DNA of 64,000 nt from an uncultured Planctomycetaceae bacterium (GTDB lineage Bacteria; Planctomycetota; Planctomycetia; Isosphaerales; Isosphaeraceae), in assembly GCA_963833985.1 (NCBI GenBank), contig CAWIAD010000002.1:1664001-1728000 (forward strand). The letters are read 5' to 3'. The translations under genes and the position numbers were made by a program. Below the pieces are notes generated by a model. That model saw only the letters and a program-made list of their open reading frames with translations. It ran no database searches and was not told the DNA's origin. Shown piece by piece: positions 1,770 to 56,036 of this stretch. Position 1 is the first letter of the stretch; each line of letters opens with the position of its first letter.

Positions 1770-1904
1770 GGAGAGCGCGGGCAAGGAACGCACCTCGAAG
1801 CCGGCCACAAGCTGTGCTGGAAGCGCTTCCCAATCTATCATCTTCGCGCGGCCTGAGCACTGCGTGAAACGCAGTCCGGGGTACGCGGACCAGCGCCCAT
1901 GGCC

Positions 1905-1974
1905 CAATACCGTTGAAATAGCGTTAACGAAAAGGGGCAAGAGGCTTGCGACAGACTTGTTCCCACGCTCCGCG
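1905..1974 (+). mobile_element. MITE 'L' arm (copy A), terminus CAATACCGTTGAAATAG
   Basis: 70 bp, near-identical to the reverse complement of 3557-3626; ends in the REP-like half GTTCCCACGCTCCGCG abutting the IS. Confidence 0.75.
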
Positions 1975-3556
1975 CTTGTCATTCCCGAGAATTTGTTAAC
2001 ATGGTTGGCTGAATCCTACCAGCATGCTCATGGATGGAACCAACTATGTTCACAGGGATGTCAGTCCACCAGTCCCCGCCCGCCCAATGGGCTCGGATGC
2101 AGTTCGACGGGATCAGGCTCGGCCATTGCACCAGGAGGAATCGCCTCATGGCGTTTGCGGAGGCCCTCGCTGAGCAACCCGGGAAGATGATCCCCGAGTT
2201 GTTCACCCGCAAGTACGACATCAACGCGACCTATGACCTCCTCGACGAACGCGAGGTGGTCCCCGATGCGATCCAGGCGACTCACCGCCGACTGGTGATG
2301 GCCGAACTCCGCAAACCGGGGCGATATCTCCTCATCGAAGACACCACGTTTCCCTCGTTCTCTCATCGCAAGCAGCCAATGCCCGGGCTTGGGCCGATTG
2401 GTGACTCGGAGCCGGGACAGCAGGGCTTTCTCCTCCACTCCATCCTTGCGATGCGTGCCGACTCGTCGCCCGTACCTGATGCGAGCGGTCGTCGGCCCCC
2501 GGTCACGATCCTGGGGCTCGCCGACCAGCAATACCTCATCCGCATCCCGCGGGATCCCGACACGCCGAAACAGGCCGGATCGCGGCAACGGCAGATCCGG
2601 GATCGGGAGTCGGATCGCTGGCTCGAGTCGGGCAAGCGGATTGGCCCGGCGCCAGAGAACCCGGAGGTCCGCTGGGTGCGCGTCGCCGATCGAGAGGCAG
2701 ATATTCATGAGTACATGGAGTCCTGTCGCGCGGCAGGCCACGGTTTCGTGATCCGGGTCAGTCAAAATCGCATTCTGCTCAATCCGGCCGATGGTAAGCG
2801 GCTCGGGCTGGTCTTCGACCACATCGTGGGCGTGGCGCCCGTGGGGGGAATGTATCTGGACCTGCGTGGCCGCGATGGTAAGGCCGCGCAGCGCGCGAAG
2901 CTCCTGATCAGTTGTGGTCCGGTGCGCGTGCGGGCACCCGAGCGTGCGGGCCGCGCGGCCGGCACGGGCGAGCCGATCGACGGCTGGTTCGTGCGGGTCT
3001 GGGAGCAAGACCCGCCTGAAGGCGTCGCGCCGCTGGAATGGGTGCTCTACACGGACAGCCCGACGGAGAGCTTCAGCGCTGCGATCATGGTGGTGATGGA
3101 CTACGGCACACGCTTTCTGATCGAGGAGTTTCACAAGGGCCTCAAGACGGGCATGAAGGCTGAGGATTTGCAGCTGGAGCGGGGCAACCGATTGTTCGCT
3201 GCGATCGCCGTGATGAGCGTGGTGGCGCTTCGGCTGCTGGATCTGCGCGAGCTCGGCAAGGGCTTCCCGGGAGCTCCCGCGGCAAGCACTGGCCTGGAGG
3301 AGCCCGAGCTGGAGGTGCTCGGTCTGGCGGTCGAGCGTGAACTCAAGACCGTGGCAGACGTGTTGCTTGCCCTGGGGCGGCTCGGTGGGCATATGAACCG
3401 GCGACGAGACGGGATGCCCGGCTGGATCACGCTCTGGCGCGGCATGAAGGTGCTCCGGCTCCTCGTAAGGGGAGCAAAGCTTGAGCGCGCGAGAATCAAT
3501 GCACATGTACACCACTAATTGAATACGCATGCATGCAGTTTTCCGGGAATGACAAG
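1975..3556 (+). mobile_element. IS4-family (IS50/Tn5-like) insertion sequence, copy 1, 1582 bp
   Basis: 13-bp terminal inverted repeats CTTGTCATTCCCG / CGGGAATGACAAG; near-identical inverted copy at 21091-22671. Confidence 0.9.
2034..3518 (+). CDS. IS4-family DDE transposase (Tn5/IS50-like)
   Basis: N-terminal W..F....LG..RR..RL DNA-binding motif; IEDTT, VADREADI and YGTRFLIEEFHKGLKTG (YREK signature); C-terminal LGRLGG...PGW..LWRG dimerisation motif. Confidence 0.95.
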   Translation: MEPTMFTGMSVHQSPPAQWARMQFDGIRLGHCTRRNRLMAFAEALAEQPGKMIPELFTRKYDINATYDLLDEREVVPDAIQATHRRLVMAELRKPGRYLLIEDTTFPSFSHRKQPMPGLGPIGDSEPGQQGFLLHSILAMRADSSPVPDASGRRPPVTILGLADQQYLIRIPRDPDTPKQAGSRQRQIRDRESDRWLESGKRIGPAPENPEVRWVRVADREADIHEYMESCRAAGHGFVIRVSQNRILLNPADGKRLGLVFDHIVGVAPVGGMYLDLRGRDGKAAQRAKLLISCGPVRVRAPERAGRAAGTGEPIDGWFVRVWEQDPPEGVAPLEWVLYTDSPTESFSAAIMVVMDYGTRFLIEEFHKGLKTGMKAEDLQLERGNRLFAAIAVMSVVALRLLDLRELGKGFPGAPAASTGLEEPELEVLGLAVERELKTVADVLLALGRLGGHMNRRRDGMPGWITLWRGMKVLRLLVRGAKLERARINAHVHH

Positions 3557-3626
3557 CGCAGAGCGCGGGAACAAGTCTGTCGCAAACCTCTTACCCCTTG
3601 TTGTTAACGCTATTTCAACGGTATTG
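3557..3626 (-). mobile_element. MITE 'L' arm (copy B), inverted
   Basis: Ends CTATTTCAACGGTATTG; paralogue of 1905-1974 with a few mismatches; flanked by ATCGTACACCC, the reverse complement of the flank at 22739-22749. Confidence 0.75.
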
Positions 3627-3684
3627 ATCGTACACCCGGAACCCGCCCGCCGCGACTCCCGCGAAGGTATTGTGTGCTCAAGGT

Positions 3685-5069
3685 TCAGCGACCGGCGGCC
3701 TGGCCGGGGAAGCCTGAGGCCGGGCGAGAGAAGCTTGAGGCCGGGCCGCTCGCGGCCGTTACGGACGCGTCGGCGCGGCTGCCGTGGGCGGCGAAGAATG
3801 CGATCGCGCGGGGAATGCCGTCGCGAATCATGGGATCGTAGTGGCCGCCCGCCGGTACCCACTCCACCGTCACTTCCTTCCCCGCGCTCTGGAGCGCGGA
3901 GGCAAACGCCTGGGTCTCGCTCACCGGGATGATCGGGTCGTCCTTGGCCTGGAAGAGCAGGACCGGGCACTTCATCGCGCCGGCGTGCTGCGCAGGATTG
4001 TACGTGGTGAGGATCTCGGCGGCGGCAGGAATGACCTGGCCGATCACCGTCCGGGCCATCGCGCTGAAGTTCCCCGTGGTATCGGAGCGCGGGGAGAACG
4101 CCGCGCAGGCCTTGATCCGCGCGTCGTTCTCGGCCAGCAAGAGTGCCATGGTTCCCGCCGAGCTGTGACCGGCGGTGTAAAGGCGACTCGGGGTCGATCT
4201 CGGGGAAGTTCTTGAGCGTCCAGTCGATGGCGGCCCTGGCGTTGGCCAGGCCCGCTCGCGCGGCGACGAATTGCGCAGGCTGGCGGCAGCCGCGGGTCGG
4301 AGAGCTGGTTCACACCGTCAACGTGGCCATCCAGCGAGTACGACACCACGGCATGGCCCGCGGCGACGTAGGGGAAGTGCTCGGCGCGGTCGCCGTCACC
4401 GAGGTCCATCCCGGTGAGGATGATGCTCCCCGCCGGCGCCACAATGACGCACGGGAGCGATCGGGGTGGATGGGTGCCATCGGGAAGGTACACCCAGACC
4501 GTCATATTCATGGTCGCCACATCCTGCCGCCCGGAGGCGCGGACCTGGAAGACGCGAATGCCGGGCCGGATGACCTGTCCCGCGTCGCGTTCCGGGAACG
4601 GGGGCGGGCCGGCCGGTGCCGAGATGACGGCTTGAGGTATGATTGGTGGCGGAACTCCCTGGTCCCCCGCGGGGTTCGCCTGGTTTCCGCGATTCAACCG
4701 CAGCACCACGCGCAGGACAATCATGGCGAGCACGAAGGCACCCCATGAGAGTCCCTTCCGGCTGGTGCCGGAGCCCCCTGCCGCCTTCGCTTTCGCGCGT
4801 CTCTTCACCTCGGCCTTCGTCTTCGGCCCGCTCGCGCCGGGCCCGGCCGCCGGGACAGGCGCACGCGGAGGAAGCATCGGCGCTGGCTCCGACAGCCCGT
4901 ACACGTCCTCGAGCGCACTGACCTCTTCGACTTCCTCGGGCTCCTCGGAGGCCAGCGCAGGCACCTTGATCGCCGCGCCGCAGTGCTTGCAGCGAACGGT
5001 CTTGCCCGCGAACTTCTCCGCCGCCTGGAAACGCTGGCCGCACTGGGTACAACTGAAGGAGATGCTCAT
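3685..5069 (-). CDS. Zn-ribbon + transmembrane + alpha/beta-hydrolase (S9-like) protein, frameshifted near 4170-4270
   Basis: ORF 4044..5069 begins CTQC...CKHC with a TM helix; ORF 3685..4149 has hydrolase-like PVLLFQAKDD and GGHY motifs; a GHSSAG-like nucleophile region spans the break. Confidence 0.7.
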
Positions 5070-5241
5070 CTTTCTACAGGCCCGAAGGGACTTGCGTATG
5101 ACGTCAGGAAGACGATGAGCCTGGAATCATGCACGGTGGTGTGGACGCCGTCAAGAGGTTGCACGGCAACCGGAATGGCGATGTCGAATCAGAGCCACAG
5201 CCGTTGCCGCACCCCCGGCCGGGGTGCGAGTGCACCTGGAG

Positions 5242-8200
5242 TCAACGCGCGGGGCGGAACCTCCAGTCAACGTGGCCAGCGTAGGCAAATGTCTCATCAA
5301 CCAGGGCGAAGAGATCCGGGTCGTGTTCCTTGAGCGCTGCGCGGCCTGCGATCGGGTGTGACGAGCCGGGCGGAGCGGCTTCCTGGCCCATGGCGTCGAA
5401 GTAGGCCAGCACGCCGCTGGCCCAGTATTCCTCGGGGTCGCGCGCCGCGGTGGTCCCCTGCCATTTTCCGGACGCGATGGCCTGCCGGTAGAGCTGAGCG
5501 ACCGTTGCACCAAACCGGACATCGAGCCGCTTGACTCGCAGCTCGTATTGCTGAACGGCCCAGCCGCGATGGTCCCAGTTGGGGTCGACGGGGCGGCTGC
5601 CCGTGACGGCGAGTGCGGCACGGGCAAGCAGGCGGATCACCTGATTCGATCCGACTCCCGGCTCCGCGTGATCTCCGAGCACGTTCTGCTGGTCCACGAC
5701 GACCGTCTTCGTCTCGGGCGTGTACTCGAGGAACCGCACCAGGGGATCGATTGGCTTGCTGCGGAAGTCGCGGTACTCGGGCAGCTCGTCAATCCGCTCT
5801 CCCGGGGCAAGGACCACGAGCTTGACGCCCGCGGCGATGAGCGCCTTGAGGATGTCGTGCCGGTAGGCGAACAGCTTGCGGACGGTGTCATTGGCCTTGA
5901 GCATGGCCTCGTCGCTGGCGCCCCGGCCCACGACCGGAAACTCGCGGGCCCAGGTGAAGCGGGTGTAGAACGGGTCGATTCCCAGTTTCGCCGGAGGCGC
6001 GGCGACGTTCGGCAGCTTCTGCACCCAGCGGTAGCGCCAGTCGTGTTCAGGATCGAGGTTGAAGGTCGTGCGGGCAAGCTCGTAGCCTTCCGGGTCGTAA
6101 AGCTTGAGCTGCTCGCGCGTGCCGACGGGGCCGTGGTTCCAGTTGTTCACCCGGTTGCAGTCGAAGTACGACTGAACGATCTCGGCCCAGTATTCGCCGG
6201 GGTTGCCGGCGGCATAGGCGCCGCGGTACCGGCCCTTCGCGATCGCGTTTTTGTAGACGGACCGGAGCCGGCCGCTCCACGCCGGGTCCATGCCACGCAG
6301 CGTGCCATCGATCGTGTGCGAGAACTCGTGAACGGCGATGCTCTCGTCGTCATAGCGGTCGAGCGGCAGCGAGAGCACGTTCTCCTCGCCGAAGCTGGTG
6401 GGCCGGCCGCCGGTCCCGCGCACCCGTTCGTTCTGGTAGGCAGGGTTGGGATGGTGCCGGTACTCGGGCATGTCCGTGTAAACCTGGTCCTTGCCGATGA
6501 CGATCAGGTACATCTGCGCTTGACCATCGCGCGGATGACGTCGGGCCGGCCGGCCAGCATCGAGTGGACGATCTCCCGGGTACGCTCGAGCGCGCGGTCG
6601 GCGACCTCGGCCGCGGCCGCCACGGGCATGCCGTCGACCTCGAGATACTTCCTGTAGAATGCGCGGGCCGCCTCCCGGTCGCCGGCGGGAACCATCGCGA
6701 AAAACGAATCCGGCGGTGGCGTCACGGCCGCGCCGCTGCTGGTGGACTCTCCACGTGCCGTGTCGACGCGGACGGCCGGCGCGGAGGGCTGTGTCGGCGC
6801 ATTGCGATCGGGGGGTTCCTCGTGGAGCAGGTGCCGGACGAAGAAGTCCTGCATCCGCCGCGTGCCGTAGGCGCCGCCGATGCCGTGGTTGGCGTTCGGC
6901 ACGACAACCAGGTCGAAGTCCTTGCCGGCGCGGATCAGGGCGTCGGCCAGGCGGAGGGTGGACTCGGGGGGCACGTTGGTGTCCATCTCGCCGACGATGA
7001 GCAGCAGCTTGCCGCGCAGCCGCCGGGCGTTGTCGATGTTGGAAGACTCGGCATACCAGGGGCCGACGGGGTATCCCATCCACTGCTCGTTCCATGAGGC
7101 CTTGTCCATGCGGTTATCGTGGCAGCCGCAGGCGGCAGCGGCCACCTTGTAGAAATCGGGATAGAACAGCACCGCGCCGGCGGCGTTCTGTCCGCCCGCG
7201 GAGACGCCGTAGACTCCCAGTCGATCGAGGTCGTAGTAGGGGTATCTGGCTGCGACCGCCCTGTGCCAGAGGATGCGGTCGGGGAAGCCGGCATCCTTCA
7301 AATTGTGCCAGCAGACGTCGTGGAACGCCTTCGACCGGTTGGCCGTTCCCATGCCGTCGATCTGGACGACGATGAAGCCCAGGTCCGTGAGCGTCGAGTA
7401 ACGATTGAAGGGGCTGAAGGTCTTGGGCACGTAGGAGTCTTGCGGACCGGCATAGATGGACTCCACGACCGGATAGCGGCGGGACGGGTCGAGATGCCGC
7501 GGCCGGGCGATCACGCCGTAAATCTCGGTCTTGCCGTCCCGGCCCCGGGCGCTGATCGGTTCCAGGGGCTGCCAGCCGCTCGACCGCAGCCGCGTGATGT
7601 CGGCCTCTTCGAGCTTGCAGACGAGGCCGCCATCGGAGCACCGGCGCAGCTCGTGGACCGGCGGCACATCGACGCGGCTGTACGTGTCGATGAGGTACGA
7701 GCGGTCGGGCGAGAACTGCACCGAGTGGCTGCCGTTGCCCGCGGTGAGCGCGACCAGCCCGGTGCCGTCGAGGTTGACGCGGTAGAAGTGCACGAAGTAA
7801 GGGTCCTGGCCGGGATTCTTGCCTCCCGCGTGGAACCAGACCTGGCGCTTCTCCTCGTCAATGAAATCGATGCCTCGCACGACGTACTCGCCCCGGGTGA
7901 TCGCATTCTTGACCTCGCCCTTGCGGGCGTCGATGAGGTAGAGGTGACGCCAGCCGTCGCGCTCCGATGCGTAGAGGATCTCCGGGGACCCGTCGAGATA
8001 GTTGACGGGCCTGAGGTCGACGTTCTCGGCGTGGGCCGTCCAGATGAACGTCCTGGTCTGCTCGTCGATCAGGTTGCGGGCCTTGCCGGTGTGCGCATCG
8101 ACCTCGATCACCCGCAGTCTCTGATGGCCGCGGTCGATCTTCTCGTAGGTGAACCGGCTGCCGTCCTTGCTCCAGCGCAGCCGCGGCTCGTCGTAATCGA

Positions 8201-9150
8201 CGCGTTCCACCTCGGGTTTGGTCTGCTTTCGTGAGCCGATGTCGAAGAGGTTCAGCTCGTAGGCCGCGAACCGGTCGCCCGGCAAGTCGTAGGGCCGGGT
8301 TCGCAAGCGGGCTCGGCCCCCGCCAGAAGGAGAGGACTGGATCAGGTAGACGTCCTTGTGATCGCCGGGCTCGATACGATGGGCCGCCAGCAGCTTCGAG
8401 TTCGGAGACCAGGACAGCCTGCCGTACGAGAGCTTCTCCTGGCCGTCATGGCTCAGCGCCACCGCCTGCGAATCCGCCTGGTCTGTTGCGCAGCATGACG
8501 TTGTGGTCCTTCACGAACGCCATCCACTTGCCGTCGGGGGAGTGGCGCGCCTCAGCGCCCGCATCTCCCGCCTCGCCAGAGAACCGAGAACGCCGCCGGG
8601 GACTCGCGGGAGCCTCCACCGGAGCATCACCCGCAGCGCCCCTGGTACATTCGTAGCTCGACAGGTCGCACTTCCAGACGGTGTCGTCGATCTTGAACCG
8701 GAGCGTCTTGCCGTCATCTCCGAACGCGATGAGGTCGAACGGCAGGCGCTTGGCGGCCACCGCACGTCCGAGCGCCTTCGTCGAGCGCGGTGGCCAGCCG
8801 CGCGTGATCGAATGCCGGGCGCGAAGTCCCCGCGGCGCGTCGACGACGATGAACTCGCGGGCTTCGCCGGCCAGGTCGTTGAGATACCAGAAGCGCGCGT
8901 TGCCGGCAAACCAGTGGGGTCGGATCTGATCCTTATCAACGAGCCGCGGCCCTGAACCCTGCGCCCGCCGCGCCTGCGGTGCATCTTGCGGCGCGAACCA
9001 GGGGTCGCCGGGCGGCGGATCCAGGCCCGGGGATTCCACGGGTGCCGTGGCGGCAGCGCCAGCGCTCGTGGTATCGTCCGCGAGAGCGCCGTGGTATGCG
9101 GTGACCAATGGAAGCGATGCCAGGAATACGGCAAGCCAGAACCGGATCAT
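5242..9150 (-). CDS. Secreted DPP-IV-like S9 peptidase fused to two zincin-like domains; frameshifts near 8800, 8460 and 6510
   Basis: Signal peptide at 9150; DPPIV_N propeller; GVSAGG nucleophile, MDTNV Asp and NANHG His in ORF 6504..8462; HEFSH...EYWAE in ORF 5242..7095. Confidence 0.8.
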
Positions 9151-9440
9151 GGAACTCTCCCGGAGAACGCGAAACGACGGCGGCCCGCTCCGCGGACAAT
9201 CGAGACGCTACGGCGAAGCGCGCCTGGTTTGTTCCGAGAGTAACAGATTTCGGGCCGTCCGTTAGTCCTCACCCGGCGCGCGGATGCCGGCCGGACAACG
9301 GCGGCTGAGCAGCCGGGTCCAGTCGCCGCGGGTTTGTCTCAATAAAGCCGGTTGCCGCACGAATCGATTGTCGCGGAAGGCGGCATCCCCACTCGCGATC
9401 AGACCGCAAGACCGGACCATCCGGACCAGGAGAGACTCCA

Positions 9441-10154
9441 GTGCGCTACCAGATCCACTATCAACCCTCTTTCAGCATGGCGGTCGTGTCGCTGGAGAGG
9501 GGTGAGCAGATCATGGCCGAGTCCGGAGCCATGGTGAGCATGTCGCCGACGATCCGGATTCAGGCGGCGATGTCGGGTGGCGGGCTGCTTGGCGCCTTCA
9601 AGAGTGCGGTCGGTGGAGAGTCGATCTTCCGGACGACCTTCACGGCCGAGGATGGCCCTGGCGAGATCGCCCTCGCTCCCGCGGCTCTCGGCGACATCAT
9701 GGCGGTCGAGGTGGCCGGCTCGCGCTACTTTGTCCAGCCAGGCAGCTACCTGGCAGGCGACCCCGGCCTGACCTTGAGCGTTCAGGGCACGATGCGGGGC
9801 ATGCTCTCCGGCGAGGGTCTCTTCCTGCTGACCGTGGACGGCAGCGGCCTGCTGCTACTCTCTTCGTTCGGAGCCATCCACACGAAAACCCTGGCTCCGG
9901 GCGAGGAGTATATTGTCGATACCGGGCACATCGTCGCCTTCGAGGGCTCGGTCGGCTACCGTCTCGAGAAGGCGACCGGAAAAAGCCAGGGAGTCGGGGG
10001 CTTCCTCAAGGGGATGGTCCAGTCCGCGCTTTCCGGCGAAGGGTTCGTCTGCCGCTATCGTGGTCCTGGCAAGATCTACATCCAGACGCGGCAGTTGCCC
10101 GGTTTCGCCCGCCAGCTCATTCCGTTCCTTCCGCGGCCGAGCTCCGGAGGATGA
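9441..10154 (+). CDS. TIGR00266/AIM24 family protein
   Basis: AESGAMVSMS, GGESIF, GEGLF, VDTGHIVAF and GPGKIYIQTR motifs. Confidence 0.9.
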   Translation: MRYQIHYQPSFSMAVVSLERGEQIMAESGAMVSMSPTIRIQAAMSGGGLLGAFKSAVGGESIFRTTFTAEDGPGEIALAPAALGDIMAVEVAGSRYFVQPGSYLAGDPGLTLSVQGTMRGMLSGEGLFLLTVDGSGLLLLSSFGAIHTKTLAPGEEYIVDTGHIVAFEGSVGYRLEKATGKSQGVGGFLKGMVQSALSGEGFVCRYRGPGKIYIQTRQLPGFARQLIPFLPRPSSGG

Positions 10155-10166
10155 GCAGACGGATCG

Positions 10167-11024
10167 TCAGGCGCGCCTCGGCTCGGAGTCGGCTGCGGAC
10201 GCGAAGCCGAGTGCGGCCAGGCGGGCCACCACCTGGGCGTACAGCTCCGGGATCGGCGGGCAGAGCGAGCCGGGCGCGGGGGTCATCCAGTTCATCTGGC
10301 GTAGGTGATCGGTCGGCCACGAGGGCAACGGCGTGCCGAAGGCGAGCGCGGAAGCGACCGACACGAGACCGTCGTTGGGTCCTTCCAGCTCGCTCAGCAT
10401 GGCGTGCAGGCGATGCAGGGGCCATGTGACTTCCGCGGCCGGTGGATCGCCAGCCAGGCTGAAGCAAGGAAGATCGCCGATCTCCCCTTGCAGGCGATGA
10501 AACCGCCGGGCCGACTGCCTGGTGATATCCAGGAAGCCCCGGGGATCCAGCCTCAAGAGCTCCAGCAGGCGGTACACACGGCCGACCCGCAGCTTGGCGA
10601 AATCGGCCAGATGCGTGCCCAGGTGCGGCGTGCCAATGGTCGTCAAGCTGAGCACGCGCTTCCGCCAGTAGGGGTCGGCAAGCAGCAGGCGGGCATCGAG
10701 GCCGCCCATGCTGTGGCCGATGATGTGAACCGGCTCGTCCGGATAGGCGCGGCGGATGCGGTCGCCCAGCCGCCGGGCCCGGAACTCCACGCCGGCGATG
10801 GGATGAACCCGCGTCACCAGCACGCGGTTGCCGGCCGCCCGCAGGTAATCCGGAATCCCCCGGAAGTACGACGTGAGCGTGAGCGGCCCCAGGCCGATGC
10901 GCGAGAAGCCGAAGAGACCGTGTGCCAGCACGAGCGGGGCATGCAGCCGTGCAACCGGGGAAGGCGGTTCGCAGGCGATGTACGACGACGCGGATGCCAT
11001 GGGACTGCCAGGGATGAACTGCAT
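10167..11024 (-). CDS. Triacylglycerol lipase/esterase (alpha/beta hydrolase)
   Basis: LAHGLFG oxyanion motif, GHSMGG nucleophile, TPHLG and NDGLV. Confidence 0.88.
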   Translation of the reverse strand: MQFIPGSPMASASSYIACEPPSPVARLHAPLVLAHGLFGFSRIGLGPLTLTSYFRGIPDYLRAAGNRVLVTRVHPIAGVEFRARRLGDRIRRAYPDEPVHIIGHSMGGLDARLLLADPYWRKRVLSLTTIGTPHLGTHLADFAKLRVGRVYRLLELLRLDPRGFLDITRQSARRFHRLQGEIGDLPCFSLAGDPPAAEVTWPLHRLHAMLSELEGPNDGLVSVASALAFGTPLPSWPTDHLRQMNWMTPAPGSLCPPIPELYAQVVARLAALGFASAADSEPRRA

Positions 11025-11154
11025 TCGGCCGGCTCAAGAAAGCTCTATGAATCGATAGAGACAGTATAGACTATGGGTCAGTGGGGTGCGTCGTGATTCG
11101 CGTCACGGAAGGGGGAGTGATGCAGGTCCGAGGAATCGTGCAGGCGCCGAGCTG

Positions 11155-11397
11155 ATGGAGAACCCTCCCGGCAGCGATCGGATCGAGATGGTTCTCTGGG
11201 GTCAAGGAGTGGGCCCGAACAAGCCGCGGAGCATCGTCGTGCCCTATGAACTGCTGCTCACCGACACGTCGCTCGAGCCGGAACGCGTTCAGGGGCACGG
11301 CTTCGAGGCGGAGGTCGAACAGGAAGAGAGTGGGCGCTGGATCGCGCGGGAGATTGGCTTTGCCTCCGGACGGGTGCTCCGCCTAGGCGACGGGTAG
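11155..11397 (+). CDS. Small hypothetical protein
   Basis: MENPPGSDRIEMVLWGQGVGPNKPRSIVVPYELLL... is globular-looking and fills the gap between two genes; start uncertain. Confidence 0.5.
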   Translation: MENPPGSDRIEMVLWGQGVGPNKPRSIVVPYELLLTDTSLEPERVQGHGFEAEVEQEESGRWIAREIGFASGRVLRLGDG

Positions 11398-12582
11398 AGG
11401 CCTGAGCATCGCGGCATCCGCCCAGGGCGGTCCGCCGTTCCTCATGGCGTGGTAGAGCGCCTCGTACCGGTCGACCACCGCTTCCAGCGAGAATTGATCG
11501 GTGGTGCGTTGACGTGCGGCCGATCCCAGGCTCCGGGCGTGCTCGGGATCCCCGAGCAGCTCCAGCAGCGTCGCGGCCCAGGCTTCGGGACGGGCGTCCG
11601 CCACCAGGCGTCCCGTCACGCCGTCGGCCACCAGGTCGGAGTTGCCGCCGATGCCCGATACAACGCAGGGAAGTGCGGTGGCCATGGCTTCCAGCAGCGA
11701 ATTGCTCATCCCCTCGGCCACGCTGGGCAGGACGAAGACGTCCGCCGCGCGGAGGTAATCCGCGGGGTCGGCCACCGCGCCGGCGAACTGGACGCGATCG
11801 GCAATGCCCAGTTCCCTGGCACGCTCGGTGAGCACCTGGCGATCGCTGCCGGGTCCAACCAGGATCAGGCTGGCCGGTACCTTGCGGACCACGAGAGACC
11901 AGGCGTCGAGCAAGAGCGGGACGTTCTTTTGCGGGTGCAGGCGGCCGGTGAAGATCACGCGGGGCCCTTGCAGCAAGTGACTGGCAACCGAGCTGGGCCC
12001 GGGATGAAAATGCTTTGTGTCCACGCCGCTGGCCATACGGACGATGCGCTCGCGGGGAAAACCCAGCTCCCGCCACTGGCGTTCAATTTCCGCGGAGATG
12101 GCCGAGAGGGCGGTGTTGCGCACGATGATCCGCCGAAGCAAGGCAGCGCCGCGGGTGCGCCGCAGCTCGTCGGCCTCGCCGTAATAACCCGCGCTTGCCG
12201 GCTGCACAAGGGTTGGAATGCCGGGCAGCCAGGGGCGGGCCAGCCCCGTGGCGACCGCTTCCCAGAATGCCTGGTGGGTATGGACCACGTCGATCCGCCC
12301 GTGCAGCTTGCGGAGAGCGTGGACGACCCCCGCGACGAAGCTGAGCGCGAAGAGCGGCCCGCGTTTCGAGGTGCGGACGCAGCGATGAATGAGGACGCCC
12401 TGGTAGTCTTCCTCGTCGACCGGGTAGCCGGGGACCGCCTGGGTGACCACGTGCACGGTGTGGCCCCGGCGCACCAGCTCGAGGCCCTGTGCCAGGGCCT
12501 GTCGTTCGGCCCCGCTGGCGAACGGATGGAAATAACTGACGACGTAACAGACGGCAAGAGGAAGCTGCGCGGCATCGGGCAT
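11383..12582 (-). CDS. Glycosyltransferase family 4 (GT-B)
   Basis: GAERQ, FTGRLHPQKN and FVLPSVAEGMSNSLLEAMA (E-x7-E). Confidence 0.92.
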   Translation of the reverse strand: MPDAAQLPLAVCYVVSYFHPFASGAERQALAQGLELVRRGHTVHVVTQAVPGYPVDEEDYQGVLIHRCVRTSKRGPLFALSFVAGVVHALRKLHGRIDVVHTHQAFWEAVATGLARPWLPGIPTLVQPASAGYYGEADELRRTRGAALLRRIIVRNTALSAISAEIERQWRELGFPRERIVRMASGVDTKHFHPGPSSVASHLLQGPRVIFTGRLHPQKNVPLLLDAWSLVVRKVPASLILVGPGSDRQVLTERARELGIADRVQFAGAVADPADYLRAADVFVLPSVAEGMSNSLLEAMATALPCVVSGIGGNSDLVADGVTGRLVADARPEAWAATLLELLGDPEHARSLGSAARQRTTDQFSLEAVVDRYEALYHAMRNGGPPWADAAMLRPLPVA

Positions 12583-12607
12583 GGGCGTTGCGGTCCGCGG
12601 CAGCGGC

Positions 12608-12877
12608 TCAGAGATCGGGATCGTGAACGTTCTTCAGGTCCTTGAAATGCGGGTACTGCGCCAGCACCTCGCGGGCGACCCTGGCCTGTGACGCCGGTAC
12701 GTAGATGACGTGCCCGGACTCGAAGCTCAGGCCGCCGAAGGCGGGAGTGGCCAGTGAAGCGTCGCTACGGGCGCAGATCTCTTGCTCGTGCAGCAGCTCG
12801 ACCACCATCGCGGCTTCGAACTCGTTGAGCACCGTGCAGAGCCGGATCTCCGGAACCTCGTTCGTGGATTCTTCCAT
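12608..12877 (-). CDS. DUF2007-like putative signal-transducing protein
   Basis: NEFEAAMVVELL...I and IYVP...A.EVL pattern; 89 aa. Confidence 0.7.
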   Translation of the reverse strand: MEESTNEVPEIRLCTVLNEFEAAMVVELLHEQEICARSDASLATPAFGGLSFESGHVIYVPASQARVAREVLAQYPHFKDLKNVHDPDL

Positions 12878-13018
12878 CGTCGTCCTCCCGCTTGCCCGTC
12901 ACTCGCTGACCCGCACGCGGGCGAGTCCTGACGGGGAAAAGAGCAGTGGCTACCGGCACGGTCGGAGCCGGGCGAACCTGGTCACAACCGGTTCGCCCGG
13001 CGTCTGGCCGCAAGCGTC

Positions 13019-14325
13019 TCAGCGGGTGATCACCAGACTGGGAATGTCGCGGCCGATGTCGTCGCTGATCAGGCCGTTGCTCACGGTGATCTGGCTGACG
13101 GCATACACGCGCCCGCTGGGCATCGCGACGTTCACTGTCCAGTCGCCGTCGGGCACCTTGACCGCGAAACGTCCGAACGCGTCAGAGAGAGCCACGCGGT
13201 CGGCGTAGGCGTTGGTCCGGCTGGAGACCGTCACCCGCACCCCTTCTTCCGGCTCATTGGTGTCCCGGGTCTTGACCCGGCCGAAGAGCACGTTGCGATA
13301 CGCGCTGGCCATGGTGCGGGTGGAGTAAACGGGCTTCTGAACCACACGCTGCTGACGGTCGGAGCCGGAGCCTGATGCCGCCTCGCCGCCGGGAGCCGGC
13401 TGAAGGTCGTCGCCGGTGGCGGGAGCCGAGGGAGGCTCGACCCCGCTCGGTGTCCCGGAGGCGCCGGGCCTGGGATTTGCCGATTCCGGCTGGACCCTGT
13501 TTGGGGCAGCCGCCGAAGTCCCGCTCTTACCCTGGGCCCCGCCGCTGTTGCGCGGGAGTGCCGTGGATGACTCGCGCGATGGCACCTGCGGCGTGGGCGG
13601 AGAATCGACCGCCCGGGGCGCCGGCGCGCGGCGTTCGAGGCCGCCGCCGTGGGTTTTGCCGGCTCGGTCGCCGGCAGCTCGGGCACATCGGAGCTGGTCG
13701 AGTCTTCGTCGGCCGCCTGGCTCTGCAACGGTGCGGAGCGGGGTCTCGGGCTGGTCCGCGGCGCCGGGGAGGTACTCTGCTCGGACGAGTACATGCGCAC
13801 TTCCGGGGCGGCCGATGCCACCATCTGGCCGTCGCAGCAATCGACCGAACGCGCCGCGGTGTAGCCGGTGGTCACAACCCCTGTATCCAGGACTGTCGGC
13901 GAATAGACTGTCGGCGAATAAAAGGTGGTCGGGTAATAGTAGGTCGTGGGGTAGTAGGCCGTGGTCGGCATGTAGTACGTGGAGACCGGCGAGTAATAGG
14001 CCCGCGTGGTTTCCACCAGCCTGCGCCCGAACAATCCCCTGCGGCGGAACCGCGTTTCATAATACGTGGGGGCCAGGTAGGCCGTCGGCGTCAGCAGGGC
14101 AGACTCGGTGACATAAGCCGTGGCATAGACAGTGGGAATCGCATAAGAGGTCGGCGCCACGATCGAGCCGCCGATCACATAGGAGGTCGGGACCGTCAGC
14201 ACGCTGCTCGTGGGATACCACCCGGCGGATTCCAGGTAAACCACGTCGGCCGCTCTGGTTCGGCCGGTGCAGAGAACCAGTGCCAGCACTGCCCCGATCG
14301 GCAATCGCAAGCCAACAAGCCGCAT
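13019..14325 (-). CDS. Secreted Tyr/Thr-rich protein with a C-terminal carboxypeptidase-regulatory-like (CnaB/Ig) domain; frameshift near 13625
   Basis: RBS GGAAGGAG before ATG 14325; signal peptide; YYPTT repeats; C-terminal LFGRV...EGVRVTV...SDAFGRF.V.VPDGDW.V. Confidence 0.65.
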
Positions 14326-14709
14326 GATGAAACTCCTTCCAGATGCGTTGCGGGTCCGTGAGAAGATCAGCGTCATGCGTGGGAACCGCTTTCCCTCACG
14401 ATACCAGAACGCTGTGCGGCAACCAAGACACTGTCCTTGCGCAAGGTTTACGGCTCGATGCACTTCCGGTTGGGAAGAATGGGAGGATTGTGACGGGGCA
14501 GCGGTTCAGGGGCGGCCGCGCGGTCCCGGCCATTGGCCTGGCTGTCGCGGAGCCGGCACGCACCGTTCGGCTCGCGGCGGGTGCCGGTTTGCATCCCGGG
14601 CAGTCTTGTGGGATGATCGATAAAGACCGTTGCCAGCATGGTTTTCGGCGGTCTGGGATGTTTCCGCCGGAATGGCCGGCTGGGTGCAACTCCGTGGAGC
14701 AAACCCATC

Positions 14710-14997
14710 ATGTTGAACTCACGCGAGGCCCTCGAGGTCCTGGACCGGGACTTCCTGGAGACACGGTGCAAGATCCTGGAAATTGCCGCTGTGCTGGATC
14801 GGATCGACCGTGCGCCAGCGCTCCATCATGTCCATCCTGATCCTCGGATGGGCCAGATTCGACAATCGCTGGAGGCGCTTTGCGTTCCGGGTCCGGGCCG
14901 TGCCGAGACAATCCAGCGCATCTTCTCGCTGGAGTACGATCCGGACTGGCGGACCGTGATGCGGCTCGCGCCGGCGCGGCCCAGCGACCGACATTGA
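14710..14997 (+). CDS. Small helical conserved hypothetical protein
   Basis: MLNSREALEVLDRDFLETRCKILEIAAVLDRIDRA...RAETIQRIFSLEYDPDW; directly upstream of the TatD gene. Confidence 0.7.
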   Translation: MLNSREALEVLDRDFLETRCKILEIAAVLDRIDRAPALHHVHPDPRMGQIRQSLEALCVPGPGRAETIQRIFSLEYDPDWRTVMRLAPARPSDRH

Positions 14998-15071
14998 ACC
15001 ACCCGGAAGGGTGGAGCCAGCCATTGCTCACGAACTGATGTGGTGATTCACCCGGCAGAAGGGGGTACGCC

Positions 15072-15907
15072 ATGCACTACGTTGATCCCCACATTCACAT
15101 GGTTTCGCGCGTCACCGACGACTACAAACGGATGGCGCTGGCGGGGTGCGTGCTGGTCAGCGAGCCGGCGTTCTGGGCGGGTTTCGACCGCTCCGGGCCG
15201 GAGGGTTTTCGAGATTACTTCCGGCAACTGACGGAGTACGAGCGGAAGCGCGCCGCCGCCTACGGCATTGAACATCGCTGCTGGCTGTGCATCAACGCGA
15301 AGGAGGCCGAGAACGTCGCGCTGTCGCGTGAGGTGATCGCGATGATCCCCGAGTTCATCGATTGCCCGGGCGTTCTGGGCATTGGCGAGATTGGCCTGAA
15401 CAAGAACACCCGCAACGAGTCGGTGGTTTTCCAGGAGCATCTCGACCTGGCGGCCCGGCTGGGCGAGCTGGTCCTGGTGCACACTCCGCATCTGGCCGAC
15501 AAGTACCAGGGAACGCGCATGATCCTGGACATGATCGCCGCCGAGCCGCGGATCGCGCCGGAGCAGGTCTGCATCGACCATGTCGAGGAGCACACGATTC
15601 GCCTGGCTCTCGAGGCGGGTCACTGGGTCGGCATGACGCTCTATCCGATCACCAAGTGCACGCCCGCCCGGGCCGCCGACATGATCGAGCTGTACGGCCC
15701 GCAACGCATCATGGTGAACTCGGCCGGCGACTGGGGCCACAGCGACCCGCTGGCCGTTCCCGAGCTCATCTTCGAGCTGCGCCGCGCGGACACGAAGAGG
15801 CTCTGATCCGCCAGGTCGTCCATGACAACCCCCTGACCTTCTTTGCCCAGTGCGCCAGGTTCCGCTTCCAATCGCTGGCGGAAGCCGGTGCCGCGGCGGG
15901 TCGATGA
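15072..15907 (+). CDS. TatD-family metal-dependent hydrolase; frameshift near 15790
   Basis: DPHIH, GIGEIGL, VHTPH and IDH motifs; C-terminus (IRQVVHDNPLTFF) continues in the frame ending at 15907. Confidence 0.85.
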
Positions 15908-16272
15908 CCACGGCCTCACCGGCACAGGCGGAGCGGACAACCGAAGGTCGCGGCGTGTGCGGGTTTGCCTGGAGCTCCAGACTCCTGAGTGCTCCCCGAG
16001 GCGTTCGTCAGGAGGCGCGTTGCGCTGTTCCCGGGCAAGGGCGAGATTGCTTGACGGCGCTCCGGAGCATTGCGAAGAATAACAAGGTCTGCCTCAGCCG
16101 ACATGCCCGGCACAGCACGCTTTGTTCCATCGCCACTGTTCTCGGCAGGAATGCGAGGCACGTCGGTGGAGCGCATCATCCCTGGCGGGTAACATCGGGA
16201 GTGCCGCAGGTCCTGTAAGCTCCCGATCCTGCCAGCCCGGACGACGAACGCACGGAGAGAAGGCGATCGCTG

Positions 16273-19069
16273 ATGAAGAGCCGCACCAAGATTGCCGCCC
16301 TCCTGGGCGTTCTCATCCTCCTCGTTGCCGGCGGCCTGCTCGCGACGACGGTGCGGGAGAGCCTCTGGCCGGACGAATCGCTGGAAGGACGGGTCCGTCA
16401 ACTGGACAGCCGCTGGGCCGCCCAGCGCCGCGCGGCGGCCACGGGACTGGCCCGTTACACGGCGTCCCCGGACACGGTCGTCCCCGCGCTCACCCGGGCA
16501 CTCGATGACCCCGACGCGGAGGTGCGGCGTAACGCCCTCGAATCGTTCGCTGCGTTCGCCGACAAGTCTCGCCCGGCGGTTCCCGCGCTGAGGCTCACGA
16601 TGAAGCAGGATCCGGACCCGGCGATTCGCAGGGAAGCGATGGCGCTGCTGGGGCGCATCAAGGATCGGGACTCGGTTCCCGCGCTGATCCAGGCGCTCGA
16701 TGACGAAGCGGGTGCGACCCAGGTGCAGGCGGTCCTGAGCCTGGGGCAGTTCGGCCCGGCCGTCGCCACGGAGCCGCTCATCGCCAGGCTGCGCTCCACC
16801 CTGCTCGAAAGCAAGAACGAGCTGTTGCGCCTGGCGGCCTTGGACGCGCTCGATTCGCTGCGCGCGGCAATGAATCCGTCGCCCATGCCGTTTCGGAGGC
16901 CGCGGTCAAGGACCCGAGCACACCACTGCGGGCCAGGGCCGTGAACATCCTGGACGCGAAATACCCGTTCGTCGTACCGGCCCTGCTCGCCGCCCTCGAC
17001 GACGCGCAGCCGCAGGTCCGGATGGCGGCGGGAAGCCGGCTGGCGCTCATCGGGCTGACCGACGACCGCACGGTCCCCGCGCTCTGCCGGCTGGCGCTCA
17101 AGGCGGATGATCTGAACCGTGAGACTGTCGGGGTCATCTTCGGACAGCTCACTCTCGTCCGGCCCAGCGGACCGACCTCCGCGGATCAGCTCGGGCGGAG
17201 ATTCGAGACAGCCGTGCAAGAGCTTCGAAGCGTCGTCGAACGGCGAGAGGCGGGCGGCCGGGCGGCTGTCGTCGCGGTGCTGGGGCGGATTGTCGGAAGC
17301 TACGAGAAGTCCGGCGAGCCGGCCCTGCTGGCGCCGGCACGCGCGGTGCTCGAAACCCTGCTCGCGCGCATCGAGGATCCCCAGGAGGACCTCTCGCTAC
17401 GGCTCGACGCCATGGGCCAGTGGCCCATGCTCCAGATGATGGTTCAGAACAGAAAAGACACGCACACCAGCGCGCTGCACGCCACAGCTTTATGGATTGC
17501 GTCCCTGGGCAGGGTGCTCGCGGACCCTGCGCTTGAGGTGCGGGGCAAGGCCATGGTCAGCCTGCTGGAGAGCTTCCAGGATCCGCTGCCCGATGGTGCC
17601 TTCCGGCAGACCTGGCAGGGCCTGGTTCCCACCATGGTGAAGGCGGCCGCGAGCGACGACCTGCGGGTCCGAACCGGTGCCTTGCTCGTGCTCAAGCAGC
17701 TTGGTCCCGTGGCCGAGCCGGCACTTCCCGCCCTGCGCCACTGGCCAGCCAGGCCCACGATCCCGCGGCCTCCGAGCAGATCGAAGCGGCCATCCGTTCG
17801 GCCTCGATCAGCGACAGGCTCCAGCGCGGCGATCCCGCGGCCCGCATCGCTGCATCCCAGGACCTGGGGCAGCTTGGCTGGCGCGCTGCGCCGACCGTAC
17901 CGCTGGTTCTCGTTCTGCTCAAGGCACCACAGGACGGCGTTCGCCTGGCTGCCGTGGCGGCGCTCAAGGCCCTCGTGACCAAGGACCTTGCCGCCGTCTC
18001 CGCACTGACCGCAGCGCTTCGGGCCGAGGCCGAGGCGCCGGTACGCGTGGCGATTCTCGAGGCTCTGGAAACCGTGGCGCCGGGGACCCGCCAGGTCCTC
18101 GACGCGCACGTCGAGGCGCTCAAGGATCGCGATCCCCGGGTTCGCGAGGCGGCGGCGCACTTCGGCCGGGTCCCCACCGACGACGCGGTCCTTGCCGCAC
18201 TCAAGTCCGCCCTGGATGATGACAGCGAGCCGGTGCGGGCGGCCGCTTCCCGCAGCCTGTGCGAGATCATGTTCCTGAAGCCTCAGGTCATTCCCACGCT
18301 GATTCAGGCGCTGGGCGAAAGCGCCCAGTGCCAGAACGTGGCGACGGCCCTGGACGAGCATCTCCAGCAGGTTTCCGATCGGGCCGAGTTTGGCCGCCTC
18401 AGGGGCGACCTTACGGGACTGCGGGCAACGCTTGCCAGCGCGGTCCCCGCGCTCCAGAAGGCGGTCACGTCCGATGGCGCCGAGCGCCGGGCTCGAGCCT
18501 TCGAGATCCTGGGGCGGATTACCGCCTTCTCCGATCTGAACCGCGACGCCGAGCTGCTGAAGGCCATTGAACCGGCCATCGGGCCCTACCTCGTCGGGCT
18601 CGAGAGCGACGACCCCGGGGTCCGCCGGGGAGTGCTGGGCCGGCTTGGCTCTATCGGTATTCACCGCGCCCGGATCGTGGGGCTGCTGCTCGGCGAGCTG
18701 GCGCGGCCGGGGCTCAACGAGGACGACCGCCAGGCCGCCCTGGCGGCGCTGGCTGCCCAGGCCACGCACGCCGGGGGCGACTCCGAACTGCACACGGCGC
18801 TTTTGCCCGCGATTCCGGAACTGGCCACGGCGCTCGAATCCCCGGCGGCAGAGCTTCGCGGCCGGGCGGTGGTGGCGCTTGGCCATATTGGCAGCGCTGC
18901 CCGGCCGGCCCTGGAGACTCTTCGCAGGCTGGCGGAGCATGACCCGGACGCAGGCATCCGCAGGAACGCCGCGGACGCCGTGAGGGCCGTCGAGGGGACC
19001 GCCCCGATGCCGGTTTCCAGCCCCCGCGGTGCTGGTGCGGGCGCGGCGCGGCCGCGGAGGATCGAGTGA
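16273..19069 (+). CDS. Membrane-anchored HEAT-repeat protein; frameshifts near 16860 and 17740
   Basis: Repeated 'VPAL..AL.D.D..VR..A' motifs across ORFs 16273..16944, 16941..17978 and 17954..19069; stop overlaps the sulfatase start. Confidence 0.8.
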
Positions 19070-21006
19070 CGGCCATGTCCGCGGCTCATGTCCAGGCGAA
19101 GCAGCAGACAACGGCGCCCGCGGGTCGCGGCCTGAGCGTCCTCAGCGTGCTCGCCCTGGCGGTCTGGCTGGGCATGGCCGCCGGGCTGCTGGAAGTCGCC
19201 ATCCGGGTCCTCTTCCGGTCCATTTCCCCGACCGGCCGCCTTTACCTGGTGAGCCGGCACTTCGTCTGGCTCACGCCGCTGGCCAACGTCGTGCTCTTCC
19301 TGGGGGTCGGCCTCGTGCTGGCCCTGCTGGCCAAGGTCTGGCCAAAGCTGGGGAGCTGGCTCTGCCCCCGGTTCCTGCTGGCCCTGGCGCTGCTGCCCGC
19401 ACTCGCGGTCGCCGTCCCCAACATCTTCCCCGAGGCCTGGTTTCTCCTGAGCCTGGGAATCGCCGTCCGGACGGTCCCCTTGCTCCAGGCCCACGCGCAG
19501 CGCCTGCGTGCGGCGTTCATCTGGGGCTTTTTCTTGCAGGCCGCGGTGATCGTGCTGCTGGCGGGGTCGGTCGTTGCGAGCGACTGGATCAAGGAGCGCC
19601 GCGAGCAGGCCCGCGCCTTACCGCCGGCCGGCGCGGCCAATGTGCTGCTCATCGTCCTGGACACGGTTCGCCAGGATCATTTGAGTCTCCATGGCTATCG
19701 CCGTCCCACCACGCCGGTGCTCGAGCGCCTGGCCCGCCGCGGGATCCGCTTTGATGCGGCCCGGGCGACGGCCCCCTGGACCCTGGCCTCGCACGCCAGC
19801 CTGTTCACGGGCCGCTGGCCCCACGAGCTTGGCGTCACCTGGCTCTCGCCAATCCGCAACGAGTCTCTCACGCTCGCGGAATACCTCGCGGACCACGGCT
19901 ACGCCACCGCCGGTTTCGTGGCGAACACGCAGTATTGCTCCTACGACACCCGGCTCGATCGCGGATTCGCGCACTACGAGGACTACGTGGACGAGTGGCT
20001 CAGTCCGCTCCGCATGTCGTTGGTGTTCCGCGAGTTCTTCACGGCCTTCTCGGAGCTCGCCTCGTACCACCCGAGCGGCCCCATCCACTCCATCCAGGGG
20101 CTGCTCACGCGCTGGTCGTGCTACGGGATCCGCAAGGACGCGGAGCGCGTCAACCACAGCTTCTTGACGTGGCTGGACCGGCGGAAGCAGCCGGATCGTC
20201 CCTTCTTCGCCTTTCTCAACTACCTGGATGCCCACGCACCTTATGAGCTGCCTCCGGCGGGGAGCTATGTGTTCGGCCGCAAGCCCCAGACCGACGACGA
20301 GCTGAGCCTCGTGAACGATCTCTGGCCGTTCCTGGATAAATCGAAGCTGCCACGTTCCTATGTGAACCTGGCGGCTGACTGTTATGACAGTTGCATCGCT
20401 TACCTGGACAGGCGCCTGGGCGAGCTGTTCGATGAGCTAGCGCGGCGCGGCACGCTCGAATCCACGTGGATCGTGATCACCTCGGACCACGGAGAGGGAC
20501 TGGGCGAGCATGGTCTGTTCTTGCATGGCGAGAGCCTCTTTGCCACGGAGATCCACGTGCCTTTGCTGATCGTGCCGCCGGCAGGCCGCGCGGCAGCGGC
20601 CGTGGTGCCCCAGCCCGTCAGCCTGCGGCAGGTGCCGGCCACGGTGGCCGATGTGCTCGGGCTGGAGCAGGGCCAGCCGTTCCCCGCCCGCTCGCTGGCG
20701 AGTCTCTGGACCCGGGGCGTGCCGAGCCCTGGACAGGACGACCCGGAACCCGCGTTCTCGGAGCTTCTGAGCCCGAATCCGAGCGACCCGAACCAGGGCA
20801 GATCCCCGGCGCATCGCGGCCCGCTCATCGCCCTGGCCGAAGAACAATTCGTGTACATCCGCAACCAGCGTGATGGCGGCGAGCAGCTCTTCGACCGGCT
20901 CGACGACCCGCGCGAGCTGACCAACCTCGTATCCAGAGAGGCGATGCAGCCGGTGCTCAGGCGGTTCCGCGATCACCTGCGCCAGGCGTTTCCCCACTTA
21001 CGTTGA
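19066..21006 (+). CDS. Membrane-anchored sulfatase-like hydrolase/transferase
   Basis: Several N-terminal TM helices; NVLLIVLDTVRQD, WTLASHASLFTG, NYLDAH, TSDHGE and HVPL motifs. Confidence 0.9.
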   Translation: MTAMSAAHVQAKQQTTAPAGRGLSVLSVLALAVWLGMAAGLLEVAIRVLFRSISPTGRLYLVSRHFVWLTPLANVVLFLGVGLVLALLAKVWPKLGSWLCPRFLLALALLPALAVAVPNIFPEAWFLLSLGIAVRTVPLLQAHAQRLRAAFIWGFFLQAAVIVLLAGSVVASDWIKERREQARALPPAGAANVLLIVLDTVRQDHLSLHGYRRPTTPVLERLARRGIRFDAARATAPWTLASHASLFTGRWPHELGVTWLSPIRNESLTLAEYLADHGYATAGFVANTQYCSYDTRLDRGFAHYEDYVDEWLSPLRMSLVFREFFTAFSELASYHPSGPIHSIQGLLTRWSCYGIRKDAERVNHSFLTWLDRRKQPDRPFFAFLNYLDAHAPYELPPAGSYVFGRKPQTDDELSLVNDLWPFLDKSKLPRSYVNLAADCYDSCIAYLDRRLGELFDELARRGTLESTWIVITSDHGEGLGEHGLFLHGESLFATEIHVPLLIVPPAGRAAAAVVPQPVSLRQVPATVADVLGLEQGQPFPARSLASLWTRGVPSPGQDDPEPAFSELLSPNPSDPNQGRSPAHRGPLIALAEEQFVYIRNQRDGGEQLFDRLDDPRELTNLVSREAMQPVLRRFRDHLRQAFPHLR

Positions 21007-21023
21007 CCCCCTGGCCATGGGCC

Positions 21024-21090
21024 CAATACCGTTGAAATAGCGATAAGTTGATTGCAGGCATAAGTTTGTCCCTCGTCCCCACGCTCCGCG
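21024..21090 (-). mobile_element. MITE 'R' arm (copy A), inverted
   Basis: Begins CAATACCGTTGAAATAG; 67 bp; paralogue of the reverse complement of 22672-22738; flank GGCCATGGGC is the reverse complement of the 1895-1904 flank. Confidence 0.75.
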
Positions 21091-22671: not shown

Positions 22672-22738
22672 CGCGGAGCGTGGGAACGAGGGACAAACCT
22701 ATGCCTGCACTCAACTTATCCCTATTTCAACGGTATTG
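22672..22738 (+). mobile_element. MITE 'R' arm (copy B)
   Basis: Starts CGCGGAGCGTGGGAACGA, ends CTATTTCAACGGTATTG, followed by GGGTGTACGAT. Confidence 0.75.
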
Positions 22739-22807
22739 GGGTGTACGATCGATCGATCCTGGATCGTTCGACCGCGGATCCTGAACTGCCCGGGGAGGTT
22801 CCGTTGC

Positions 22808-55826: not shown

Positions 55827-55865
55827 AAGCTTTGGACCTTCGAGGATGGGACTTCGACCCGGATC

Positions 55866-55881
55866 GTGTTATTATTTACAC
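55866..55881. promoter_or_regulatory. AT-rich palindrome in the uvrB/DUF4058 divergent promoter
   Basis: GTGTTATTATTTACAC here, and a perfect GTGTTA-TTAT-TAACAC in the duplicate at 56855-56870. Confidence 0.4.
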
Positions 55882-56036
55882 TGGATGAGGGACTGCCAAC
55901 CGCAATCCGATTCGCCCGGCCGCGATTACGAGCAGCCGATTCGCGGGGAATCCGCCGGCGCGGGGGCAATCGGCCTGGAGAGTCCGGATGAGTGGATCGA
56001 GGTTCCCCGGGGAGAGTCTTGCCAGGAGGCGCCGCC

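Follow-up and report, generated by a model that had tools for sequence, protein, structure and literature searches.

Organization of the locus

The DNA analyzed, referred to here as the window, is a stretch of 64,000 nucleotides from an uncultured Planctomycetaceae bacterium whose genome amounts to 10.16 Mb in two contigs. It contains two oppositely oriented copies, A and B, of an insertion sequence (IS) of the IS50/Tn5 subgroup, each flanked on both sides by half of a REP-like hairpin and by one arm of a small non-autonomous element, or MITE. The features are as follows:

1895–1904, plus strand: outer target duplication of MITE1, first copy (GCCCATGGCC); its inverted partner is at 21013–21022
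1905–1958, plus strand: L arm of MITE1; 1905–1921 is the 17-bp IS4-subgroup terminal repeat
1959–1974, plus strand: REP-like hairpin, outer half; the 9-bp target core is 1966–1974
1975–3556, plus strand: IS copy A, IS50 subgroup, 1,582 bp, with perfect 13-bp terminal repeats at 1975–1987 and 3544–3556
2034–3518, plus strand: Tn5-like transposase, intact, 494 aa (D103, D219, E364; Y357-R360-E364-K371)
3557–3572, minus strand: hairpin half of MITE2, with core CGCAGAGCG at 3557–3565
3573–3626, minus strand: L arm of MITE2, inverted; terminal repeat at 3610–3626
3627–3637, minus strand: outer duplication of MITE2, inverted copy of GGGTGTACGAT
3557–21090, no strand: putative inverted segment (exchange between IS copies A and B), suggested by crossed outer duplications and a SNP mosaic
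21013–21022, minus strand: outer duplication of MITE1, second copy, inverted; one additional base precedes the terminal repeat
21024–21090, minus strand: R arm of MITE1, inverted (21024–21074), with hairpin half (21075–21090)
21091–22671, minus strand: IS copy B, 1,581 bp; its frame ends after 290 codons
22672–22738, plus strand: hairpin half of MITE2 (22672–22687) and R arm; terminal repeat at 22722–22738
22739–22749, plus strand: outer duplication of MITE2 (GGGTGTACGAT)

As an earlier, sequence-only reading of this stretch maintained, the same REP-like half abuts all four IS junctions (1959–1974, 3557–3572, 21075–21090 and 22672–22687), in arms of 70 bp (L) or 67 bp (R), hairpin half included, that both terminate in the 17-bp repeat CAATACCGTTGAAATAG. 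Autonomous elements in relatives have the 17-mer of 1905–1921 as their left end, too. That the IS is nested in the MITE also holds, but the intact L..R MITEs described with it are not there in the window as written: copy A lies between two L arms (L-IS-L') and copy B between two R arms (R'-IS-R), and whole MITEs emerge only when an inversion of ~19 kb is undone. At the left boundary of copy A, contigs from sequencing runs X1 and X4 have loose ends at 1974.

Elsewhere in the window, direct repeats at 55809–56286 and 56798–57276, ~990 bp apart and 86–93% identical, are probably tandem paralogous genes, and a GC-rich tandem repeat with a 12–15-bp unit at 58057–58194 is likely a glycine-rich coding tract.

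The IS and its transposase

Protein matches, motifs, ends and duplication length agree in placing the IS in the IS50/Tn5 subgroup of the IS4 family, as had been supposed. Tn5 transposase matches the IS protein with E=2.7e-36; the protein scores above the cut-off for NF033590 and matches PF14706 as well; and its DDE (D103, D219, E364) and YREK (Y357-R360-E364-K371) residues are invariant across seven aligned proteins. The left end agrees with the IS50 consensus, CW------Y---CA-A--W-, at seven of the eight specified positions, with G instead of C at position 13, and the 9-bp duplication described below lies within the subgroup's 8–9 bp. At 1,581–1,583 bp, the element is ~30 bp beyond the 1,350–1,550 bp typical of the IS50 subgroup according to the sections consulted of PMC2266710.

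The host genome carries seven copies, which differ from one another at 5–23 of 1,583 alignment columns. Two of the seven retain the full 494-codon frame, and cut-and-paste activity is predicted from the sequence. The closest named relatives of the IS fall in Isosphaeraceae. Residues ~144–156 of the transposase (window 2463–2501) form an insertion of 12–13 residues that is common to the CTTGTCAT-ended group and missing from Tn5 and ISEc13; judged from the alignment, it is a candidate specificity element.

One base of a hairpin

When the flanks of every copy are tabulated, all 14 IS junctions in the genome abut one base of a hairpin. The IS is thus site-specific, as had been claimed, with seven of seven copies at the same position. 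The target is the apex of the REP-like hairpin, TTCCCA-CGCnnnGCG-TGGGAA. The duplication made there had been put at no more than 4 bp (CGCG), and is really 9 bp. It can be seen directly at three of the seven copies, two of them perfect (CGCTC(T/C)GCG) and the third with one mismatch. The empty palindrome reconstructed earlier, GTTCCCACGCTC-CGCG-GAGCGTGGGAAC, has no copy in the genome at two or fewer mismatches; empty sites in fact are hairpins whose loop is 3 nt long.

Where the element ends and the duplication begins is settled by a relative, 91% identical, at locus L038 in genome G002. Here, an unrelated 9-mer, ATCAAGAGA, is duplicated, with palindromic arms on either side, and because this 9-mer is unrelated, the IS end is CTTG and the duplication is 9 bp. 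Duplications of 9 bp occur at the relatives' loci L038, L039 and L071; across the reconstructed targets their lengths range from 7 to 11 bp, mostly 9, and some track the size of the loop. At each of the genome's 14 junctions the IS end is preceded by GCG, which would also suit longer ends, with the hairpin halves counted as IS sequence and only a 3-bp loop duplicated. Relatives start with CTTG, however, next to unrelated duplications of 9–11 bp (L038, L075), and empty hairpins are abundant. This reading, already refuted by L038, is scarcely credible.

Because L038, an off-REP target, keeps palindromic arms around an unrelated core, the comparison suggests that the arms of the palindrome matter more for targeting than the core does. 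Arm pairing reaches at least five of seven bases in 24 of 28 reconstructed targets, all selected for a direct duplication and from related, hence not independent, loci, versus 5.5% of 5,000 random sites. Comparators of the IS50 group from plasmids are mixed—an arm score of at least 5 in none of the six with a duplication, and scores of 7 and 5 in the two without—and going by these scores the preference for palindromes may not be confined to one clade.

Insertions into repeats are harmless, and this would favor a quite different account, namely that insertion is untargeted and that selection has purged the copies outside extragenic repeats. Purging could yield neither one identical base in seven of seven copies nor 24 of 28 targets with the insertion centered on the axis of the palindrome, and we think this account extremely improbable. 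Targeted insertion at the hairpin is the reading we adopt.

In the relatives' loci, IS ends were located by motifs (the end pair is absent in 2 of 64), target labels were assigned by eye, and a quick tree served for rough grouping only. Short metagenome contigs are possibly chimeric across the IS, and inverted flanks on such contigs were excluded as evidence of mechanism.

The MITE and its autonomous parent

The earlier proposal was correct on the arms: they are those of a second, non-autonomous element of IS4 type, which makes its own duplication, of 10–11 bp. CAATACCGTTGAAATAG fits the end consensus of the IS4 subgroup, -AATR--------WTW, at every specified position, and the duplication falls within the 10–13 bp of that subgroup (consensus from PMC2266710, in part). 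The outer duplication agrees at nine or more of ten bases in 13 of 35 copies, versus 1 of 1,190 mismatched pairs. Empty MITEs were looked for, and are present in the genome. The 35 two-ended MITEs comprise four of 128–130 bp, 20 of 210–245 bp, three arrays of 358–466 bp and eight that bear an IS; none has the size of ~135 bp once proposed. The short MITE (~128 bp) is one hairpin, and the long MITE (~230 bp) is an inverted hairpin doublet.

An autonomous IS with these ends, whose existence had been anticipated, is found in relatives, but not in the host. Elements of 1,484–1,490 bp with both ends, matching Nterm_IS4 and NF033592, occupy 8 of the 10 relative loci examined; end and protein searches of the host genome found no autonomous CAATACC-ended IS (best identity 28–33%).

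The arms of IS-bearing MITE copies differ by 6–26%. Because they are far more divergent than the IS copies, the insertions were independent, as had been argued; the opposite orientations put forward as proof of this are weak evidence, because the IS, bounded by a 29-bp inverted repeat in which the half-hairpins are included, could, we infer, flip in place. Movement of MITE and IS as a single unit was considered and rejected, the arms being about ten times more divergent than the IS.

The MITE is host to other elements as well. An IS1182-family element (NF033551; L272:1–1883, G000 C2 3745424–3747306, and four more copies) lies, in five of five copies, within the inner GACGC-nnn-GCGTC hairpins, with a 3-bp loop duplication that is mismatched in two. 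A single IS66-family copy (L273, G000 C2 2576586–2578325) is in the first hairpin of the MITE, with an 8-bp duplication.

Hairpin or MITE

The MITE had been seen as a safe landing pad, recognized by the IS through its arms or as a whole. All seven copies in the host genome do lie in hairpins with MITE arms about them, and the IS1182 and IS66 copies lie within the MITE, too. Hairpins here are nearly all MITE-borne, however, and because 80 of 94 hairpin matches are within 400 bp of MITE arms, MITE and hairpin are confounded in this genome. In relatives at 81–91% identity, insertion is into the hairpin outside these MITE ends. Among close relatives, an IS end could be read at 25 loci; one end or both lie at the hairpin in 19 of these, and six are away from it; by junction the figure is 32 of 48, one of the 48 probably spurious. 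A MITE end is present in none of the 20 relative IS loci checked, only eight of which have long flanks. Genome G036 (58% complete) contains no match to the MITE end; of 11 loci fetched for a relative there with 30% identity, 10 have the IS next to the very same hairpin. More distant relatives are found at the apex of other REP families or repeats. Recognition of the MITE itself is thus largely refuted, and we rate it very unlikely. Judging from these flanks, the target is the hairpin, and the MITE only carries that repeat.

The hairpin is a short, multi-copy palindrome, with 94 matches in the host genome, about 96 sites of the kind used by the IS in its 10.16 Mb, and often an inverted doublet, the form that it takes in 20 of 35 MITEs. 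The long MITE folds as one stem with its two hairpins paired (z=-9.4). We call the hairpin REP-like because no cognate RAYT was found: none of seven Y1 loci in the host genome has the hairpin alongside, and of 51 Y1 matches in four genomes of relatives, 30 loci were fetched, and it is close to two of them, inside another MITE bracket. The GTAG or CGTC foot tag is absent, the foot reading CTC-GTT, CTT-GTT or GGC-ATT in the copies inspected; these tags as a feature of REPs and REPINs are taken from parts of PMC3733652, and the definitions of REP and RAYT from parts of PMC6006769 and PMC3733652. In a survey of the phylum, 3 of 300 other genomes had exact matches to the hairpin, at one site each.

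Loss of the inner doublet

In four of the seven IS copies—A and B of the window, once un-inverted, c696 and c5958—the inner doublet is missing. The IS in these copies sits between two outer half-hairpins, and the loss lies exactly between the two cut sites. Loss with the outer duplication intact is seen at c5958, L172 and L074; at L072 the inner doublet is present as a 94-bp direct repeat with six mismatches. The loss most likely occurs by IS-promoted adjacent deletion or by recombination. Adjacent deletions that start at the ends of Tn5 are known in vivo (PMC2723962, in part), and the simplest route is one that runs from an IS end as far as the neighboring target. A simple deletion of this kind predicts the usual loops, TCT at L and TCC at R, and two of the four deleted copies fit. 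The other two would require either rare loop variants, seen in 1 of 18 long MITEs, or a later flip inside the inverted flanks of 29 bp, or conversion.

The same loss might come about in one step, by capture of a folded structure: with hairpins 1 and 2 paired in an extruded doublet, the IS ends would attack sites ~100 bp apart, and deletion of the inner doublet or a long duplication would be the primary products. The single-stem fold of the long MITE (z=-9.4) speaks for this, as do inner loss in four of seven copies here and in at least two other genomes with the outer duplication intact, the 94-bp direct repeat at L072, and the deletion by IS1272 of parts of its hairpin targets, as described in portions of PMC4923244 and PMC5678879. 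However, adjacent deletion and inter-copy recombination yield the same products; mismatched duplications, found in two of five IS1182 copies, too, point to inter-copy exchange as a common event; and L072, which is without its outer left arm, could be a recombinant. Capture of a folded doublet strikes us as quite unlikely, and adjacent deletion or recombination remains our preferred reading. Broader, and rather unlikely, is the idea that homing to REPs is the natural behavior of a wide group of Tn5-family transposases, in which each subunit reads one arm of the palindrome by itself. Cut spacing would then be variable, following loop size at 9, 10 or 11 bp and stretching to as much as ~100 bp where a doublet is folded, so that deletion of the inner doublet, or a long duplication, might arise in one step; members would have switched REP families, and two distant lineages (~30% identical) would share this hairpin.

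A probable inversion

Because their outer duplications are crossed, we infer that A and B are products of a ~19-kb inversion, brought about by recombination between inverted IS copies. The 10-mer to the left of copy A recurs, inverted, to the left of B, and the 11-mer to the right of B recurs, inverted, to the right of A. If A and B exchange ends, one product comes to be 4 rather than 9 differences away from its nearest genomic copy, with no change for the other, at 12; the SNP mosaic puts the crossover near IS alignment columns 1100–1470. A mis-join in the assembly would look identical. The gene-order test (sulfatase then TPR gene) gave 0 of 20 loci, in a paralogue-rich setting, and was uninformative; GC skew across the inverted segment is uninformative on inversion as well, and in the sequencing runs (shares 0.05–0.14) no contig spans the locus, hence these lend the arrangement no support. 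Replicative inversion was also weighed as the origin of A and B, and was rejected since the copies differ at 23 columns.

A proposed history

An explanation by stacked elements—a REP-like doublet in a MITE, an IS at the hairpin, inner loss, inversion—is, taken as a whole, probably right. In the first step, a REP-like hairpin doublet would have become the cargo of a MITE with IS4-subgroup ends, which an IS4-subgroup transposase presumably spread in trans, with 10–11-bp duplications, at sites resembling GGNTTAAGCC; the ends, the duplications and the parent element of this step have all been seen. In the second, a later-arriving IS of the IS50/Tn5 subgroup would have cut and pasted itself into the center of the hairpin, at the site and with the 9-bp duplication described above. 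What the dimer of its transposase recognizes is most likely the pair of symmetric arms around the 9-bp core, rather than the loop or the MITE.

The doublet's second hairpin, ~100 bp off, would be an equal target, and in the third step the inner doublet could be removed by adjacent deletion, or by recombination after a local hop. This would give the product that is in fact observed, an IS between two outer half-hairpins. Finally, inverted copies 19 kb apart would have recombined into L-IS-L' and R'-IS-R.

Relation to known systems

Tn5 transposase is a standard, near-random insertion enzyme. The IS resembles IS50/Tn5 (PMC2266710, in part; PDB 1MUS) in its DDE and YREK transposase with a Tn5 N-terminal domain, its CT-starting ends and its 9-bp duplication, but its transposase is only about 28% identical. 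The sites used by Tn5 are incompletely explained by a motif (PMC8557372, in part), whereas this IS is at one base of a repeat in seven of seven copies. Target selection in the Tn5 family has been only partly mapped, according to the sections consulted of PMC2229646.

A parallel in behavior is offered by ISRm22 of Sinorhizobium meliloti, an IS4-family element all of whose copies are in REPs, at the axis of the palindrome, some with mismatched duplications ascribed to recombination or adjacent deletion (PMC1525189, in part). ISRm22 differs in belonging to the IS4Sa subgroup (PMC2266710, in part) and in its 6-bp duplication, and the consulted part of PMC1525189 does not report its REPs as MITE cargo. 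IS1397, ISKpn1, IS621, ISPpu9/10, ISPsy8 and IS481 (P. fluorescens SBW25) likewise have extragenic palindromes as fixed targets, but they belong to the IS3, IS110 or IS481 families and are not Tn5-like. REP targeting has been published for IS3, IS110, IS481 and IS4Sa-subgroup elements (PMC1525189, PMC3184786, PMC11708052 and PMC2266710, each in part). IS1272, of the IS1182 family, also targets a hairpin and replaces part of it, but without duplication and by deletion within one hairpin (PMC4923244 and PMC5678879, in part); here, a 9-bp duplication is usual and the loss is between two hairpins. REPINs and REP doublets (parts of PMC3337134, PMC3116915 and PMC3733652) are similar in having two inverted palindromes with a spacer, in many extragenic copies. 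The doublet described here differs in that it has no GTAG tag, no cognate RAYT gene was found, and it is spread between IS4-type ends.

REP targeting is therefore known in other IS groups, and what seems to be new here is homing to a REP-like hairpin by an IS of the Tn5 type. At the level of titles and abstracts, in a literature covered in part, we found no report of REP targeting by the IS50 subgroup, or of this family; the supplements to PMC2266710, with subgroup alignments of ends and targets, may bear on this novelty. Natural homologues of Tn5 with a defined, 21-bp palindromic target invite comparisons to find the residues that set specificity, and site-selective tools might be made from them. 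REP-like repeats, for their part, can be spread by unrelated cut-and-paste transposases, and when so spread they become hot spots for more ISs and for inversions.

Other brackets and neighboring repeats

The identical doublet lies between different ends in genomes G007 and G032, and hairpins of other kinds are enclosed by CAATACC ends in G002, G007 and additional relatives. Other short inverted ends enclose the doublet at L146, L153, L157 and L172 (G007), at L154 and L160 (G032) and at L074, some with 8-bp duplications. Comparison of these brackets suggests that the doublet has been captured repeatedly by unrelated IS ends.

A second type of MITE, ~145 bp, has TAGAGCGGTTTTC ends, which we take to be IS630-like from their motif, and contains a different pair of hairpins (G000 C2 3041847–3041993, and 14 more pairs). 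The same pair also flanks the Y1 locus L005, and one copy of this MITE is inserted in an L arm. An IS4-family element with CCATAG ends (NF033592; L274, G000 C2 1893740–1895480, and about eight more copies), presumably ISH8/IS231-like by its ends, has most of its copies inside REPs of the GTAG type that belong to the Y1 locus L007; by eye, the duplications measure ~18–20 bp. Lastly, strongly AT-rich tracts accompany the hairpins of arrays at C1 256529–256994, C1 1331990–1332430, C2 1826856–1827213 and C2 2033036–2033455 of G000, and at L147 and L150. In this genome of 65% GC, they resemble MITE arms that have shifted toward AT, their hairpins intact.
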